Notes under the pieces: generated by a model
What the model was told of the DNA's origin: nothing
Database searches by the model: none
The model's input: the letters and a program-made list of their open reading frames with translations, nothing else
Part shown: positions 1 to 38,501 of the stretch, in pieces
Layout of the letters: each line of letters starts with the position of its first letter
Numbering within the stretch: position 1 is the stretch's first letter
From: Escherichia phage RCF
Length of the DNA: 38,501 nt
Sequence record: OR941417.1
Strand: one strand, 5' to 3'
Made by a program: the position numbers and the translations under genes

Positions 1-969
1 GCCAAGGGTAATTGGGGTCTGGAGTCGATGGACTACTGGCAGACACTGGCGGAGCGTATGCGTGATGTTGGTTTCGTCAAGCTGGGCAACGGTCACTTTA
101 GCGCAGCCTATGAACACGCACTGCTACCGGGTAAGGTCATCAAGGTAGGCTTTAAGAAAGAGGACTCAGGCGCTGCCTATGCTGCCTTCTGCCGTATGAA
201 TCAGGGTCGTGAGGGTATCCCTACGGTGTACGACATTCAGCGTCATGCGGGCTGCTACACGGTGGTCTTGGACTATCTGACACCGCTTAACGATTGGTGC
301 TACGGTGAAAGTGATAAGATTCGCCACCACTTCCACGCTGCAAGGGAAATCATTCAGGAGGATTGCTTCGACACCGCCGAAGAGTACCCGATAAGCGAGG
401 GCTTCATTGAGACCTGCAAGGATATCCGCAAGTTCTTCTTAGGCATCGCATCGTTCGACTGTCATAGCGGTAACATGATGAAAGACCAGATGGGACGCCT
501 GATTATCACAGACCCGGTATCATTCAGCGCAGACGACAAGTTAAAGCCGGGTGAGTTCCACTGTGACCCGGATGAACTAATCGCTGAGATTGAGGCGCTG
601 AGGGCGCAGGAAGCGATTGACCGCTGTAAGGCACGCAAGGCACGCCGTGACCCTAACGGAACCTTTCAGGCAGCACGTAAAGCCCGTGCCAAATGGCGCA
701 GAAAGGCCTCTAAGCGTGAGAAGCGCAACGCTAAGGTACTCGCTAAGATGCGCATGGATGCCAATCAGAATCGCAGGGATGAGCCTAGGGCGCGTATGGT
801 GTGGGGCGATAAGCACTGGCGCAACGCTTGGATGCACCACAACAATCTAAACTTTGCAGAACTGGAGCGCCGCGCTGCTGCGGCAATGATGATGCATGAT
901 GAGGTGCGCATTCAGTGGGGCAAACCGTTACACATAGACGCATACCTTGACAAGCGTCTGCAAGGCTGA
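1..969 (+). CDS. 0.7: Gene 0.7 protein kinase / host transcription shut-off protein, C-terminal portion; the ORF begins at 38234 and continues across the window wrap (about 369 aa in total)
   Basis: Translation matches T7 gp0.7 (FKMLGNGHFSAAY, GKVIKVGFKKEDSGAAY, CRM.QGR.GIP.VYD, HAGCYTVVLD, basic C-terminus). Frame is continuous with 38234..38501 through the 127-nt overlap. Confidence 0.9.
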   Translation, partial: AKGNWGLESMDYWQTLAERMRDVGFVKLGNGHFSAAYEHALLPGKVIKVGFKKEDSGAAYAAFCRMNQGREGIPTVYDIQRHAGCYTVVLDYLTPLNDWCYGESDKIRHHFHAAREIIQEDCFDTAEEYPISEGFIETCKDIRKFFLGIASFDCHSGNMMKDQMGRLIITDPVSFSADDKLKPGEFHCDPDELIAEIEALRAQEAIDRCKARKARRDPNGTFQAARKARAKWRRKASKREKRNAKVLAKMRMDANQNRRDEPRARMVWGDKHWRNAWMHHNNLNFAELERRAAAAMMMHDEVRIQWGKPLHIDAYLDKRLQG

Positions 970-1039: not shown

Positions 1040-3694
1040 ATGAACATCATCGAAAACATCGAAAAGAATGACTTCTCCGAAATCGAACTGGCTGCTATCC
1101 CGTTCAACACACTGGCAGACCACTACGGTAGCGCATTGGCTCGTGAACAACTGGCTTTAGAGCATGAGTCTTATGAGCTAGGCGAGCGCCGCTTCCTCAA
1201 GATGCTTGAGCGTCAAGCGAAAGCTGGTGAGATTGCAGACAACGCAGCCGCTAAGCCATTACTCGCTACGCTTCTCCCTAAGTTAACCGCACGTATCGTT
1301 GAGTGGCTCGAAGAGTACGCATCGAAGAAAGGCCGCAAGCCCGTAGCCTATGCACCACTCCAGCTACTCAAGCCGGAGGCGTCCGCGTTTATCACACTCA
1401 AGGTCATCCTTGCGTCACTGACCAGCACGAACATGACAACCATTCAGGCCGCTGCTGGTATGCTGGGGAAGGCCATTGAGGACGAGGCACGTTTCGGGCG
1501 CATCCGTGACCTCGAAGCGAAGCACTTCAAGAAGCACGTTGAGGAACAACTCAACAAGCGCCACGGGCAAGTCTACAAGAAAGCCTTTATGCAGGTGGTT
1601 GAGGCCGATATGATTGGTCGTGGGCTGCTGGGAGGCGAGGCGTGGTCTAGCTGGGACAAGGAAACCACGATGCACGTAGGGATTCGCCTGATTGAAATGC
1701 TGATTGAATCCACGGGTCTGGTGGAACTACAGCGCCACAACGCAGGCAACGCAGGCTCTGACCATGAGGCACTGCAACTGGCCCAAGAGTACGTCGATGT
1801 GTTAGCGAAGCGTGCAGGAGCACTGGCGGGTATCTCTCCGATGTTCCAGCCGTGTGTCGTACCGCCGAAACCTTGGGTATCAATCACAGGTGGCGGCTAT
1901 TGGGCTAACGGTCGCAGACCTTTGGCACTCGTTCGCACTCACTCTAAGAAGGGACTGATGCGCTACGAAGACGTTTACATGCCAGAAGTCTACAAGGCTG
2001 TGAACATCGCACAGAACACCGCATGGAAAATCAACAAGAAAGTTCTTGCCGTTGTCAATGAAATTGTTAACTGGAAGAATTGCCCGGTCGCAGATATTCC
2101 ATCGCTGGAGCGCCAAGAGTTACCGCCCAAGCCGGACGACATTGACACCAACGAGGCAGCACTCAAGGAGTGGAAGAAAGCCGCCGCTGGTATCTACCGC
2201 TTGGACAAGGCACGAGTGTCTCGCCGTATCAGCTTAGAGTTCATGCTGGAGCAGGCCAACAAGTTTGCAAACAAGAAAGCAATCTGGTTCCCTTACAACA
2301 TGGACTGGCGCGGTCGTGTGTACGCTGTGCCGATGTTCAACCCACAAGGCAACGACATGACGAAAGGTCTGCTGACCCTCGCTAAAGGCAAGCCAATCGG
2401 TGAGGAAGGGTTCTACTGGCTGAAAATCCACGGTGCGAACTGTGCGGGTGTCGATAAGGTTCCTTTCCCTGAGCGCATCGCGTTCATTGAGAAGCACGTA
2501 GACGACATTCTGGCTTGCGCTAAAGACCCAATCAACAACACTTGGTGGGCCGAGCAGGATTCACCATTCTGTTTCCTCGCGTTCTGCTTCGAGTATGCAG
2601 GCGTTGCGCACCACGGTCTGAGCTACAATTGCTCTCTGCCGCTGGCGTTCGATGGGTCTTGCTCCGGTATCCAGCACTTCTCCGCGATGCTCCGCGATGA
2701 GGTAGGCGGTCGCGCGGTTAACCTGCTGCCAAGCGAAACCGTGCAGGACATTTACGGAATCGTTGCACAGAAAGTAAACGAGATTCTCAAACAGGATGCA
2801 ATCAACGGCACACCTAACGAGATGATTACCGTGACCGACAAGGACACCGGGGAAATCTCAGAGAAGCTCAAGCTGGGAACCTCAACGCTGGCGCAACAGT
2901 GGCTGGCATATGGTGTAACCCGTAGCGTAACTAAACGTTCGGTCATGACGCTGGCTTACGGTTCCAAGGAGTTCGGCTTTCGTCAACAGGTACTGGACGA
3001 CACCATTCAGCCTGCGATTGACAGCGGTAAGGGCTTGATGTTCACTCAACCTAACCAAGCGGCTGGCTATATGGCTAAGCTGATTTGGGACGCGGTGAGC
3101 GTGACCGTAGTCGCAGCGGTTGAGGCGATGAACTGGCTCAAGTCTGCCGCCAAGCTGCTGGCTGCTGAGGTCAAGGACAAGAAGACCAAGGAGATTCTGC
3201 GCCACCGTTGCGCGGTTCACTGGACTACGCCGGACGGCTTCCCGGTATGGCAGGAATACCGCAAGCCACTCCAGAAGCGTCTCGATATGATTTTCTTGGG
3301 GCAATTCCGTCTGCAACCGACGATTAATACCCTCAAGGATTCAGGCATTGACGCACACAAGCAGGAGTCTGGCATCGCGCCTAACTTTGTTCACTCACAG
3401 GACGGTAGCCACCTCCGCATGACAGTCGTTTATGCTCACGAGAAGTATGGCATTGAGTCCTTTGCGCTCATCCATGACAGCTTTGGGACTATCCCGGCAG
3501 ACGCTGGTAAGCTCTTTAAGGCTGTGCGTGAGACGATGGTTATCACCTATGAGAACAACGATGTGCTGGCAGACTTCTATGACCAGTTTGCAGACCAGCT
3601 ACACGAGACCCAACTGGACAAGATGCCTCCGCTTCCGAAGAAAGGAAACCTGAACCTGCAAGACATTCTCAAGTCTGACTTTGCCTTTGCATAA
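1040..3694 (+). CDS. 1: Single-subunit phage RNA polymerase (T3-type), 884 aa
   Basis: 884-aa ORF collinear with T7 RNAP, preceded by a GAGGT Shine-Dalgarno. Its cognate T3-type promoters recur through the genome. Confidence 0.98.
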   Translation: MNIIENIEKNDFSEIELAAIPFNTLADHYGSALAREQLALEHESYELGERRFLKMLERQAKAGEIADNAAAKPLLATLLPKLTARIVEWLEEYASKKGRKPVAYAPLQLLKPEASAFITLKVILASLTSTNMTTIQAAAGMLGKAIEDEARFGRIRDLEAKHFKKHVEEQLNKRHGQVYKKAFMQVVEADMIGRGLLGGEAWSSWDKETTMHVGIRLIEMLIESTGLVELQRHNAGNAGSDHEALQLAQEYVDVLAKRAGALAGISPMFQPCVVPPKPWVSITGGGYWANGRRPLALVRTHSKKGLMRYEDVYMPEVYKAVNIAQNTAWKINKKVLAVVNEIVNWKNCPVADIPSLERQELPPKPDDIDTNEAALKEWKKAAAGIYRLDKARVSRRISLEFMLEQANKFANKKAIWFPYNMDWRGRVYAVPMFNPQGNDMTKGLLTLAKGKPIGEEGFYWLKIHGANCAGVDKVPFPERIAFIEKHVDDILACAKDPINNTWWAEQDSPFCFLAFCFEYAGVAHHGLSYNCSLPLAFDGSCSGIQHFSAMLRDEVGGRAVNLLPSETVQDIYGIVAQKVNEILKQDAINGTPNEMITVTDKDTGEISEKLKLGTSTLAQQWLAYGVTRSVTKRSVMTLAYGSKEFGFRQQVLDDTIQPAIDSGKGLMFTQPNQAAGYMAKLIWDAVSVTVVAAVEAMNWLKSAAKLLAAEVKDKKTKEILRHRCAVHWTTPDGFPVWQEYRKPLQKRLDMIFLGQFRLQPTINTLKDSGIDAHKQESGIAPNFVHSQDGSHLRMTVVYAHEKYGIESFALIHDSFGTIPADAGKLFKAVRETMVITYENNDVLADFYDQFADQLHETQLDKMPPLPKKGNLNLQDILKSDFAFA

Positions 3695-30562: not shown

Positions 30563-32170
30563 ATGGCTACAACTATTAAGACCGTGATGACTTACCCGCT
30601 GGATGGCTCCACTACGGACTTTAATATTCCGTTCGAGTATCTGGCGCGTAAGTTCGTCAGAGTGACCCTTATCGGTGTTGACCGAAAGGAACTCATCTTG
30701 AATCAAGACTATCGTTTTGCGACTAAGACCACAATCTCCACAACGAGAGCATTGGGGCCAGCGGACGGTTATAACCTTATCGAGATTCGTCGGTACACCT
30801 CAGCGACTGAACGTCTGGTTGACTTTACGGATGGCTCAATCCTCCGTGCGTATGACCTGAACATCTCGCAGGTGCAGACCCTCCACGTTGCTGAGGAAGC
30901 GCGTGACCTTACCGCTGATACGATTGGCGTTAACAACGATGGCGACTTGGATGCTCGTGGTCGTCGTATCGTGAACGTTGCGGACGCTAAAGACCCCGGT
31001 GACGCAATCACTTTGGGTCAAGTCTCTCGGTGGAATGAGTCGGCACTGAACTCTAAGAATGCTGCTGCTGCATCTCAACAGGCCGCTGCTGCATCCCAAC
31101 AGGCCGCTAAGACCTCAGAGAACAACTCGAAGGTGTCTGAGAACAACGCAAAGACCTCCGAGAGTAACGCGCATCAATGGGCGCAGCGTGCAGAGGACTC
31201 TCCGGTTCAGGGTAGCGAGTTCTCTGCGTATCACTACTCACGGAAGGCCTCAAAGAGTGCCGCCGCCGCAAGTACGTCTGAGGGGAATGCAAAGACCTCT
31301 GAGAACAACGCAAAGACCTCTGAGAACAACGCAAAGACCTCTGAGAGCAACGCCGCTACCAGTGCTGCAACCGCTATCGCTGAGGCCGCCAAGTTGACAA
31401 ACATGAATGATTTTGCGACTACCATCAAGGCTGTTAACACAGCTACCTACTCGGTTTCGTGGAAAGGTGATGGCATGTTTGACGGCTCGGTCACTGCTGG
31501 TAAAGGACTTACAGTGTCTACTGGTGACGTCACCATTAACCAAGGAACGGGCAACTGGGTTTTCCTGAATGGGTACACAGCAGTTGGTGTTAACTACACA
31601 TCCAATGGCATTCGTACATCTAACCGAAACAATCAGCGCGTGGACGACTACACGTGGGAAGCGACAGGGCAGTATTTTGCCAAAGTAGTCCACGTATACC
31701 AAGCAGGCAATCCAAACATTCCAGAGTTCTTCTACGAGTTCCGAAACAATGGTACTGTGCAGTTGGGCCAAGTTAGGGCGATTGGTGGAGATGAATCCAC
31801 CTTCCAGCACAACGTTAATATCCAGTGGGGTGGCCGTGGCGCCCGTTATCAGGAAAATGGCGACATTGTGTCTATACAGGGGGATGCATCCATCTTCCGA
31901 GAATTTGGAGGAACACTTAGTGGTACAATTAACTGGCTTAAGAATGTTAACATTCAGGACGTTTGGTTAGGTGGTCAGGAGTGGTGGGGTTCTTTACGTG
32001 GCAACGGGAATAGCCGTTCTGACTGGGCATTGGGTGGAGGCTCAGTGTGTACTGGCGTGACTCAGGATATGACAGCAGGTGAGCGTAATGCTTGGATTGA
32101 TGGTATATTCCATCGTAAGGTCTGGATTCGTTATGGCTCTGGGCAGCAGCGCATCATTGCTTCTGTTTAA
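30563..32170 (+). CDS. 17: Tail fibre protein (conserved N-terminal tail-attachment domain, repeat-containing shaft, divergent C-terminal receptor-binding region)
   Basis: N-terminal ~150 aa match T7 gp17 (IKTV.TY.LDGS..DFNIPFEYLARKFV.VTLIGVDRK, GVNNDG.LDARGRRIVN); the rest diverges. True start is ATG 30563 after AAAGGAGG; track start 30539 lies in the 5' UTR. Confidence 0.9.
   Translation: MATTIKTVMTYPLDGSTTDFNIPFEYLARKFVRVTLIGVDRKELILNQDYRFATKTTISTTRALGPADGYNLIEIRRYTSATERLVDFTDGSILRAYDLNISQVQTLHVAEEARDLTADTIGVNNDGDLDARGRRIVNVADAKDPGDAITLGQVSRWNESALNSKNAAAASQQAAAASQQAAKTSENNSKVSENNAKTSESNAHQWAQRAEDSPVQGSEFSAYHYSRKASKSAAAASTSEGNAKTSENNAKTSENNAKTSESNAATSAATAIAEAAKLTNMNDFATTIKAVNTATYSVSWKGDGMFDGSVTAGKGLTVSTGDVTINQGTGNWVFLNGYTAVGVNYTSNGIRTSNRNNQRVDDYTWEATGQYFAKVVHVYQAGNPNIPEFFYEFRNNGTVQLGQVRAIGGDESTFQHNVNIQWGGRGARYQENGDIVSIQGDASIFREFGGTLSGTINWLKNVNIQDVWLGGQEWWGSLRGNGNSRSDWALGGGSVCTGVTQDMTAGERNAWIDGIFHRKVWIRYGSGQQRIIASV
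31061..31351 (+). repeat. In-frame 21-bp (heptad) tandem repeats within tail fibre gene 17: block 1 at 31061..31169 (5 units), block 2 at 31289..31351 (3 units, 62/63 nt identical)
   Basis: Units GCAAAGACCTCTGAGAACAAC x2 then GCAAAGACCTCTGAGAGCAAC (AKTSENN/AKTSESN); upstream units encode AAASQQA x2 and AKTSENN/SKVSENN/AKTSESN. Confidence 0.9.
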
Positions 32171-32180
32171 GGAGAACAAT

Positions 32181-32567
32181 ATGGTTAAGTATGAAAACTG
32201 GAAGTGGACTAACGGTGAACAAGTCGGGCCTGATCGTTATATCGCCGAGATTAACATTGGGGAACTCTCTTGGTACGACCTGATGGAAGACTTGGATAAG
32301 CAAGGAGAACGTGTGGTCGTCGGTGTGTCCAGCGATGGAAGCGTCAACTGGTTCACCGATGGTCGGGTATCAGGTGTTCACGCCCCGTCTGATGGGACAA
32401 GTGTTGTTGTGGTTGATAGTGTCCCATTCACTCAGGAAGACTATCGACAATTCATCTTGGTAGGCAACGAGTTCCAGCGTAAGGAAAGCACGCTAACTCC
32501 GCGCACTAAGGAAGACATCATGGCTGACTTAATTAAACTTCAAGAGGAACTGAAAGCTATGGCATAG
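32181..32567 (+). CDS. Hypothetical 128-aa acidic protein between tail fibre and holin; family not recognised
   Basis: ATG 32181 with RBS TAAGGAGAACAAT, 10 nt after the gene 17 stop, no phage promoter of its own. No TM segment. Track start 32079 is inside gene 17 and unlikely. Confidence 0.6.
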   Translation: MVKYENWKWTNGEQVGPDRYIAEINIGELSWYDLMEDLDKQGERVVVGVSSDGSVNWFTDGRVSGVHAPSDGTSVVVVDSVPFTQEDYRQFILVGNEFQRKESTLTPRTKEDIMADLIKLQEELKAMA

Positions 32568-32607
32568 CGATAAAGAACAAGGATGTTCACACATAAGGAG
32601 AACAAGA

Positions 32608-35822: not shown

Positions 35823-36410
35823 CCTGTAGAGTCAACCCTAAAGGTTATACCTAAAGATGCCCTGTAGTTCGTAATGGTCTTACAGGGTCTTCTGGTGTCT
35901 CCTAGCTATCCCTTCGGGATGCGCCTATGGTCTCACCTATGGTGTGGCCTTACCTAAAGTGGGTTCCTAAAGAGACCCTTTAAGAATTTACCACAAAAAT
36001 CTGAATGGGTATCTCACAGTTCAAGAACCCAAAGTACCCCCCATAGCCCCTCTTAAAGCCACCTAAAGCCAGCCCTACCCCTAGGGTTTAACCTTCGGTT
36101 AACCTTGAGTGTCTCCTCAAGTGGCCTATAGGATAGCCTAAAGTGATTCCTAAAGTCAATACCTAAAGTGGTGGATGGCTTAAGGAGGCCTTAAAGAGTG
36201 TCCTAGTGTACCAGTTCGATAGTACATCTCTATGTGTCCCTATCTGTTAGCCTCATAAAGTAAACCCTAAAGCCTCCACCTAAAGCCTCCACCTAAAGCC
36301 ACTACCTAAAGACCAGACCTAAAGCCTCCACCTAAAGAGTGGAGCTATCTTAAAGACAACCAGACTGATAGACCAACTGTTAGCCTGTAGTGACGCCCTG
36401 TAGTTATCTG
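35823..36410 (+). repeat. Genome-end region: arrays of the heptamer CCTAAAG (about 14 exact copies plus CTTAAAG variants), CCCTGTAG motifs, and the probable terminal repeat (about 36012..36241)
   Basis: Exact CCTAAAG copies at 35837, 35850, 35953, 35966, 36062, 36137, 36149, 36162, 36266, 36279, 36292, 36305, 36318 and 36331. TCTCACAG at 36012 matches the conserved T7-group left terminus, and nearby blocks (AACCTTCGGTT.ACCTTGAG, GTGTCCCTATCTGTTA) match the T7 terminal repeat. Confidence 0.6.
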
Positions 36411-36420
36411 TAGTCAATTC

Positions 36421-36442
36421 AATTACCCTCACTAAAGGGAAT
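36421..36442 (+). promoter_or_regulatory. phiOL: T3-type phage RNAP promoter (phiOL-like), AATTACCCTCACTAAAGGGAAT
   Basis: Matches the T3 promoter consensus at the left end. Confidence 0.8.
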
Positions 36443-36495: not shown

Positions 36496-36525
36496 TTGAC
36501 TTTAAGTAACCCTTAAGGCTATTAT
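36496..36525 (+). promoter_or_regulatory. A1: Host sigma70 early promoter A1-like (TTGACT, ~18 nt spacer, TATTAT)
   Basis: -35/-10 hexamers read from the sequence; location at the genome left end matches T7 A1. Confidence 0.55.
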
Positions 36526-36624: not shown

Positions 36625-36654
36625 TTGACAACATGAAGTAACATGCAGTAAGAT
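36625..36654 (+). promoter_or_regulatory. A2: Host sigma70 early promoter A2 (TTGACA ACATGAAGTAACATGCAG TAAGAT)
   Basis: Near-identical to the T7 A2 promoter sequence as I recall it. Confidence 0.8.
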
Positions 36655-36734: not shown

Positions 36735-36763
36735 TTGACAACATGAAGTAAGCACGGTACGAT
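36735..36763 (+). promoter_or_regulatory. A3: Host sigma70 early promoter A3 (TTGACA ACATGAAGTAAGCACGG TACGAT)
   Basis: Near-identical to the T7 A3 promoter; followed by GTACCACAT. Confidence 0.8.
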
Positions 36764-36887
36764 GTACCACATTGAAACGACAGTGAGGCGGGACACTGAA
36801 AGCCGCTAGGGTCTAACGAAACCAGACCGACACGCTCTTTAACAATCTGGATAATAGCTCTTGAGTGTACCGATGTATAAGCGAATA

Positions 36888-36925
36888 ACTCAAGGTCGCA
36901 CTAAAAGCGTGGCCTTTATGATATT
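36888..36925 (+). promoter_or_regulatory. RNase III-type processing hairpin upstream of gene 0.3 (ACTCAAGGTCGCACTAAAAGCGTGGCCTTTATGATATTC)
   Basis: Same motif family; position corresponds to T7 R0.3. Confidence 0.7.
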
Positions 36926-36958
36926 CACTTAACACGAACTAACATGAGGTAACACCAA

Positions 36959-37417
36959 ATGATTTTCACTAAAGAGCCTGCTAACGTCTTCTATGTACTG
37001 GTGTCAGCTTTCCGTTCAAACCTTGACGATGAGGTGAACATGAGCCGCCACCGCCACATGGTAAGTACTTTACGTGCCGCACCGGGTCTTTATGGCTCCG
37101 TTGAGTCAACCGATTTGACCGGGTGCTATCGTGAGGCAATCGCAAGCGCACCAACTGAGGAAAAAACGGTTCGTGTACGCTGCAAGGACAAGGCGCAGGC
37201 GCTCAATGTTGCACGCTTAGCTTGCAATGAGTGGGAGCAAGATTGCGTACTGGTATACAAATCACAGACTCACACGGCTGGTCTGGTGTACGCTAAAGGT
37301 ATCGACGGGTATAAGGCTGAACGCCTGCCGGGTAGCTTCCAAGAGGTTCCTAAAGGCGCACCACTGAAAGGGTGCTTTACGATTGACGAGTTCGGTCGCC
37401 GCTGGCAAGTACAGTAA
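36959..37417 (+). CDS. 0.3: S-adenosyl-L-methionine hydrolase/lyase (anti-restriction protein)
   Basis: 152 aa starting MIFTKEPANVFYVLVSAFRSNL..., which I recognise as the T3 SAMase; first gene after host promoters A1-A3 and the R0.3 hairpin. This is T3-type, not the T7 Ocr protein. Confidence 0.92.
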   Translation: MIFTKEPANVFYVLVSAFRSNLDDEVNMSRHRHMVSTLRAAPGLYGSVESTDLTGCYREAIASAPTEEKTVRVRCKDKAQALNVARLACNEWEQDCVLVYKSQTHTAGLVYAKGIDGYKAERLPGSFQEVPKGAPLKGCFTIDEFGRRWQVQ

Positions 37418-37423
37418 GTGATA

Positions 37424-37460
37424 GACTCAAGGTCGCACTGTATGTGTGGCCTTTATGATT
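37424..37460 (+). promoter_or_regulatory. RNase III-type processing hairpin after gene 0.3 (GACTCAAGGTCGCACTGTATGTGTGGCCTTTATGATTATC)
   Basis: Same motif family; near-duplicate of the site at 36888. Confidence 0.7.
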
Positions 37461-37489
37461 ATCACTTAGCACGTTATAGGACTAACACC

Positions 37490-37690
37490 ATGAGTAAACT
37501 ACTGGCAACATCTAAAATAGAAGGCCAATGCACTGTAACACTGCGCGAGTATTACCACGGGTCAATGGGAAGCACCTACGTTGTGCGATACGGTAAACAG
37601 GTCACACATTGGGTAAATCCGATTTTAGCACAAGAGGATTATCAAGCCTGTGTGATACACCAAGCAACATGTGCGGGCTGGAATGATTGA
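37490..37690 (+). CDS. Early small protein (66 aa), function unknown
   Basis: ORF following an RNase III-type hairpin; true start ATG 37490 (MSKLLATSKIEGQC...). Position corresponds to the T7/T3 0.4-0.6 block. Confidence 0.6.
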   Translation: MSKLLATSKIEGQCTVTLREYYHGSMGSTYVVRYGKQVTHWVNPILAQEDYQACVIHQATCAGWND

Positions 37691-37709: not shown

Positions 37710-37868
37710 ATGGCTATACTTATCACTATCGCACTCTTTGCGGTCGCTGGCTGGTACTCTGAGTCACGCAAGGCCGCTCGCTATCATCGCAAGATGGTTA
37801 AACTCATGGAACACTTGGACGAAGAAGGGCGAGGCCGCGAGGCTATCGAACTGGTGAAACACGCATGA
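37710..37868 (+). CDS. Early small membrane protein (52 aa), function unknown
   Basis: ATG 37710 after AGGAGG; N-terminal hydrophobic helix (MAILITIALFAVAGWY). Track start 37671 is inside the upstream gene. Confidence 0.55.
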   Translation: MAILITIALFAVAGWYSESRKAARYHRKMVKLMEHLDEEGRGREAIELVKHA

Positions 37869-38233: not shown

Positions 38234-38501
38234 ATGACTTTCACCGAAGCACAAGCCGCACTCGAAGCTATCCGCAACCTACCGATTGAGCGCCTGAACG
38301 AACGCCAGCCCATGCTGGTGGCTCTTGCGGCTGCTATCGTGAACGCTGAGACTCAAGACGGGCAACTGACGCAGGCCAAGGGTAATTGGGGTCTGGAGTC
38401 GATGGACTACTGGCAGACACTGGCGGAGCGTATGCGTGATGTTGGTTTCGTCAAGCTGGGCAACGGTCACTTTAGCGCAGCCTATGAACACGCACTGCTA
38501 C
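38234..38501 (+). CDS. 0.7: Gene 0.7 protein kinase, N-terminal portion (3' end truncated by window end; continues in frame at window start)
   Basis: ATG 38234; MTFTEAQAALEAIRNLPIERLNERQPMLVALAAAIVNAETQDGQLTQAKGNWGLESMDYWQTLAERM... runs to the window end, and the last 127 nt are identical to nt 1..127. Confidence 0.85.
   Translation, partial: MTFTEAQAALEAIRNLPIERLNERQPMLVALAAAIVNAETQDGQLTQAKGNWGLESMDYWQTLAERMRDVGFVKLGNGHFSAAYEHALL
38375..38501 (+). repeat. Window wrap-around: these 127 nt are identical to nt 1..127 (circular permutation or assembly overlap, not a biological repeat)
   Basis: Direct comparison of the first and last 127 nt of the window; the overlap falls inside gene 0.7. Confidence 0.95.

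Follow-up and report, generated by a model that had tools for sequence, protein, structure and literature searches.

The open reading frame at positions 36959..37417 of the window (the whole 38,501-nucleotide stretch of Escherichia phage RCF DNA analysed here, record OR941417.1) is very probably gene 0.3 of a Teetrevirus, a T3-like podovirus, and encodes an S-adenosylmethionine (SAM) lyase, or SAMase, a judgement that we make jointly for the identification and for the mechanism proposed below. The identification of this SAM lyase gene is already known and the exact protein is public; the current understanding is unchanged. The original prediction had placed a reading frame of 152 amino acids here and had called it the first early gene. 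The frame is indeed present on the + strand with exactly these coordinates, and it is the first class I gene behind the host promoters A1-A3, with no + strand ORF of at least 60 aa between these promoters and position 36959 in the ORF list of the window. The layout of the early region around the gene is as follows.

36425..36440, + strand: phiOL, a T3-type phage RNA polymerase promoter core, an exact match to ACCCTCACTAAAGGGA, aligning with T3 phiOL 366-388
36496..36525, + strand: host (sigma-70) early promoter A1, TTGACT-18-TATTAT, 10/12 matches, aligning with T3 A1 443-472
36625..36654, + strand: host early promoter A2, TTGACA-18-TAAGAT, aligning with T3 A2 572-601
36735..36763, + strand: host early promoter A3, TTGACA-17-TACGAT, aligning with T3 A3 683-711
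36878..36931, + strand: RNase III hairpin R0.3, upstream of gene 0.3, -17.3 kcal/mol, z=-4.3, aligning with the T3 stem_loop 822-875
36946..36950, + strand: Shine-Dalgarno GAGGT, read from the sequence, 8 nt before the gene 0.3 ATG
36959..37417, + strand: gene 0.3, SAM lyase (SAMase), an ORF of 152 aa plus stop, ATG to TAA
37040..37417, + strand: internal in-frame start at Met28, giving a 125-aa 0.3B product; the ATG at codon 28 is kept, with GAGGTGA before it
37414..37468, + strand: RNase III hairpin R0.45/R0.5, -24.8 kcal/mol, z=-5.1, equivalent to T3 R0.5 and to phiYeO3-12 R0.45

The promoters and RNase III hairpins of the window are collinear with the annotated features of T3, and gene 0.3 is bounded by RNase III sites on both sides. 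The two flanking hairpins share a near-identical conserved core (CTCAAGGTCGCAC...GTGGCCTTTATGAT, at 36889..36922 and 37426..37459), and the downstream one overlaps the stop codon of gene 0.3 and continues beyond it. The Shine-Dalgarno sequence is identical in T3 when the two are aligned, and ORFs that overlap the gene in other frames or on the opposite strand reach at most 57 aa in the window ORF list. In the T3 record, the segment 982..1359 is annotated as 'in-frame internal initiation', and a 125-aa '0.3B protein' is found in the same protein cluster as the gene 0.3 product; by analogy with the T3 annotation, the internal start at Met28 would be used in this phage as well.

To assess the identity of the protein, we compared it with the Pfam families and with all PDB chains. 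The sole Pfam family matched was PF23780, S-AdoMet_lyase (E=2.5e-42, 144.4 bits, against a score cutoff of 28 bits), with protein residues 13-151 lying on profile positions 1-132 of 133. Among all PDB chains a single sequence was matched, T3 gp0.3 (7OCK, 8BB1; E=3e-100), entered there as 'SAM hydrolase / S-adenosylmethionine lyase', which aligns over all 152 residues and is identical at 149 of them (98%), the three substitutions from T3 being C23D, S62A and Q137K. As judged by sequence comparison, the match to T3 gp0.3 and to PF23780 is far beyond chance, and the claim that the gene encodes the SAM-degrading enzyme of T3 is borne out. The name 'hydrolase', under which it had been predicted, is superseded: the family consists of lyases, which give MTA and L-homoserine lactone through a unimolecular lyase mechanism and not through hydrolysis (PMC7877911). 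An identical protein is present in GenBank as QZE51066.1, from Klebsiella phage vB_KpnP-VAC1, and was seen on 14 contigs; a second Klebsiella phage, vB_KM5a1-KLB7 (PP582758.1), also gave a 100% match to the gene 0.3 protein by tblastn. The nearest nucleotide match to the gene in the phage collection is 97.8%.

The resemblance to T3 extends beyond the sequence of the protein as a whole. The T3 protein (P07693) is likewise 152 aa long, is encoded by the first gene after A1-A3, lies between R0.3 and R0.5, has the internal start at Met28 and carries the same catalytic and MetK-contact residues. At the nucleotide level the two genes differ at 26 of 459 positions, and the changed codons comprise 21 synonymous and 3 non-synonymous ones (dN/dS 0.06). 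The phiYeO3-12 gp0.3 is one residue apart from the window protein (Q137K; dN/dS 0.012) and the SAM lyase of the Salmonella phage vB_SAg-RPN15 is two residues apart (dN/dS 0.08), so that dN/dS against relatives spans 0.01-0.08. Gene 0.3 is intact and under purifying selection.

Conservation was read from an alignment of 33 homologues, the lowest identity being 44%. Invariant positions include, among others, M1, I2, T4, E6, N9, Y12, E59, Q94, D95, T104 and H105, with E68 conserved at 90% or more; all invariant family positions, and E68 as well, are retained in the window protein. The substrate-positioning residues E68, Q94 and D95 (T3 numbering), mutation of which lowers or abolishes catalysis in the T3 SAMase (bioRxiv 10.1101/2023.02.27.530186; PMC7877911), are all present. 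The elements that contact the host SAM synthetase MetK are also the same as in T3, namely I2, T4 and K5 at the N-terminus and Q103 and T104 in the beta4-beta5 loop, the positions that were mutated in the T3 enzyme to probe MetK binding (bioRxiv 10.1101/2023.02.27.530186). As for the three substitutions, close relatives in this alignment more often have D23 and A62 than the T3 residues, and K137 is found there as well.

We propose that, once the left end of the genome enters the cell, host RNA polymerase would transcribe gene 0.3 from A1-A3, and that cleavage at the flanking RNase III hairpins would release it from the early transcript. The protein would split SAM into 5'-methylthioadenosine and L-homoserine lactone and would also bind MetK, by which SAM resynthesis would be blocked; the drop in SAM would then turn off SAM-requiring defences (type I restriction-modification (R-M) and BREX) and reduce host methylation. 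The identity of the gene, its intactness, its conserved functional residues, its genomic position and the purifying selection acting on it are established here; experiments on T3 gp0.3, 98% identical to the window protein, are the source for the lyase chemistry, for the binding of MetK and for the range of defences countered, which would hold here too.

In those experiments, T3 SAMase was found to bind MetK of E. coli and to inhibit the synthesis of SAM (PMC8406200; bioRxiv 10.1101/2023.02.27.530186), and it has both anti-BREX and anti-EcoKI activity (bioRxiv 10.1101/2023.02.27.530186). The two cryo-EM studies of the SAMase-MetK assembly differ, with open filaments in one and a discrete 4:4 complex in the other (PMC8406200; bioRxiv 10.1101/2023.02.27.530186). 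Type I R-M, which cannot cleave without SAM, is disabled when SAM drops, as is the active stage of BREX, and SAM depletion causes more toxicity in cells with the type II system EcoRV (bioRxiv 10.1101/2023.02.27.530186). The view that the enzyme works by removing the cofactor of type I R-M is incomplete, since the T3 enzyme also inhibits MetK and defeats BREX (PMC8406200; bioRxiv 10.1101/2023.02.27.530186). The conjugation frequency fell when a K. pneumoniae plasmid donor was made to overexpress T3 SAMase, an effect that the authors credit to SAM depletion (PMC12456054), and this result is relevant here because the closest relatives of the window infect Klebsiella. In C. botulinum, a related lyase breaks down SAM-AMP, a signal of type III CRISPR, and a possible anti-CRISPR role has been suggested for phage lyases (PMC10600005); for the T3 type such a role is hypothetical.

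Other members of the enzyme family place the T3 type in a wider setting. The SAM lyases Svi3-3 and Orf1 from environmental phages belong to the same family and share the unimolecular lyase mechanism (PMC7877911), with Glu69 of Svi3-3 corresponding to Glu68 of the window protein (PMC7877911), but their sequence similarity to the T3 type is barely detectable. Svi3-3 assembles as a trimer and has its active sites at the interfaces between subunits, whereas the T3 SAMase is dimeric when in complex with MetK (PMC7877911; PMC8406200).

Several other readings of the gene have to be weighed against this one. The suggestion that protection is mainly non-catalytic, through the sequestration or inhibition of MetK or another host partner, with SAM cleavage secondary for anti-restriction, strikes us as the less probable account. 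In its favour, EcoKI was still overcome by classical T3 mutants without SAMase activity, the catalytically dead E68Q/Q94A T3 SAMase keeps MetK binding and partial anti-BREX activity, and the MetK-contact residues are conserved in the window protein. However, catalytic mutants of the T3 enzyme show reduced anti-BREX activity, and the active-site residues are strongly conserved across the SAM lyase family. A MetK variant that escapes T3 SAMase binding likewise reduces anti-BREX activity; as impairment of either catalysis or MetK binding has this effect, both routes contribute. It has also been argued for T3 that the enzyme serves mainly to hold the phage genome free of methylation, a state that would govern how the phage behaves in starved cells, and not to overcome restriction (PMC8406200). 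In T7, the homologous slot is occupied by a protein dedicated to anti-restriction, and we regard this role as the main one as improbable.

The two remaining readings concern what the gene is rather than how its product protects. A decaying or non-functional remnant, with the working anti-restriction function residing elsewhere, for example in an Ocr, is very hard to reconcile with a full-length, intact frame, with dN/dS in the range given above, with the retention of all the functional residues tested in T3 and with the lack of an Ocr homologue on either strand of the window; the intact frame and the low dN/dS led us to reject a pseudogene or decaying copy. That the product is a SAM-dependent methyltransferase, as the label of phrog_2226, of many Pharokka-type annotations and of RefSeq records including T3 NP_523296.1 would have it, has close to no probability in our estimation. 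Pfam finds the lyase family alone, without a methyltransferase domain, and NCBIfam finds nothing; the T3 protein, which is 98% identical, is a lyase by both its solved structure and its biochemistry (7OCK/8BB1; PMC7877911), and UniProt names P07693 S-adenosylmethionine lyase. The methyltransferase label was rejected as an annotation error on the missing domain in Pfam and NCBIfam and the published lyase biochemistry. Among the homologues, many RefSeq records are labelled 'SAM-dependent methyltransferase', one (MF979561.1) is labelled 'serine recombinase' and most others are labelled 'hydrolase'; mislabelling of the SAM lyase family is a widespread database error.

With the SAM lyase reading retained, its relation to the T7 system can be considered. 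Ocr, the gp0.3 of T7, occupies the same genomic slot and acts against the same targets (type I R-M and BREX), but it works by DNA mimicry rather than by cofactor depletion and has no sequence similarity to the window protein. Positions 36962-37416 of the window have no blastn match in T7. No Ocr homologue was detected by tblastn on either strand of the window, the best hits being at unrelated sites, with E=0.16 for T7 Ocr and E=1.4 for the Ocr of RPN15. The prediction that the phage has no T7-type Ocr is thus upheld, as queries with the T7 and Teetrevirus Ocr returned only noise (E of at least 0.16).

The same prediction took the gene as a lineage marker. The genome is T3-like, but the marker is not a strict one, with T3-type SAM lyase homologues in 471 phage records (tblastn) across several genera and a phage that carries both genes. 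Among the carriers are records under the names Przondovirus and Klebsiella KP32-type (about 38-43% identity), as well as Erwinia, Pectobacterium and Yersinia phages. In the Teetrevirus Salmonella phage vB_SAg-RPN15 (NC_071009.1), the region 2617..3501 holds a SAM lyase with 99% identity to the window protein and, immediately after it, a genuine Ocr homologue. RPN15 is the only phage in the collection in which the two genes are adjacent (megablast; two records of one phage), and this tandem is a rare exception. One further record, PQ520054.1 (7.8 kb, named 'Enterococcus phage IME_EF3'), holds a SAM lyase 63% identical to the window protein; this host assignment is odd, and the record is possibly mislabelled or a contaminant fragment.

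The genome at large also reflects the assignment to T3-like phages. The 127 bases at the start of the window (1..127) recur exactly at its end (38375..38501), an overlap from circular assembly, and the window represents a complete genome in circularly permuted form, about 38.4 kb long, in which the terminal repeat has been collapsed into a single copy. The sequence of the physical left end in T3-type genomes (TCTCA[C/T]AGTTCAAGAACCC...) aligns at about window position 36012. Relative to T3 there is an insertion of about 52 bp at about 36268..36319, with extra short repeats containing CCTAAAG, of the type found just inside the left end. The window is 86.5% identical to T3 over 93% of its length and 72.5% identical to T7 over 79%, and it contains 16 T3-type RNA polymerase promoter cores and none of the T7 type. 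RPN15, T3 and phiYeO3-12, the close relatives in the collection for which the taxonomy line was read, all carry Teetrevirus there, and on these similarities the window is assigned to Teetrevirus (T3-like Studiervirinae). It is about 97% identical over 25 kb to Klebsiella phages such as GlastosBack and Bobalons, and the host is likely Klebsiella or another enterobacterium rather than E. coli. Elsewhere in the genome, positions 30989..32586 have no blastn similarity to T3 or T7; by collinearity with T3, this segment lies in the distal part of tail-fibre gene 17, and it is probably the host-range module.

Directly downstream of the SAM lyase, the window departs from T3 in having two small genes, which lie between the SAM lyase and gene 0.6 and are absent from T3.

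37490..37690: gp0.45, 66 aa, phrog_6500, 95% identical to phiYeO3-12 gp0.45, with no NCBIfam model
37710..37868: a 52-aa protein with a hydrophobic N-terminal stretch, phrog_25811

The Yersinia phage phiYeO3-12 also has gene 0.45 downstream of gene 0.3, as in the window. In RPN15, the slot of these two genes is occupied by Ocr plus a 0.4-like gene, and copies of the RNase III-type hairpin core stand at 2547, 3084 and 3643, one of which separates the SAM lyase from Ocr. A speculative reading, to which we give a rather low probability, is that the left end forms a modular anti-defence array of hairpin-bounded cassettes (core CTCAAGGTC...GTGGCCTTTATGAT), in which phages exchange SAM lyase, Ocr and small uncharacterised genes. 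The near-identical RNase III hairpins could serve as recombination points for such swapping.

If the cassette reading is true, both gp0.45 and the 52-aa protein would count as uncharacterised factors for anti-defence or for host takeover. For the SAM lyase itself, the value of the finding lies in annotation and in the prediction of host range for phage therapy: a phage with gene 0.3 would have no gain against SAM-independent defences, and it should resist those that depend on SAM, such as type I R-M and BREX.
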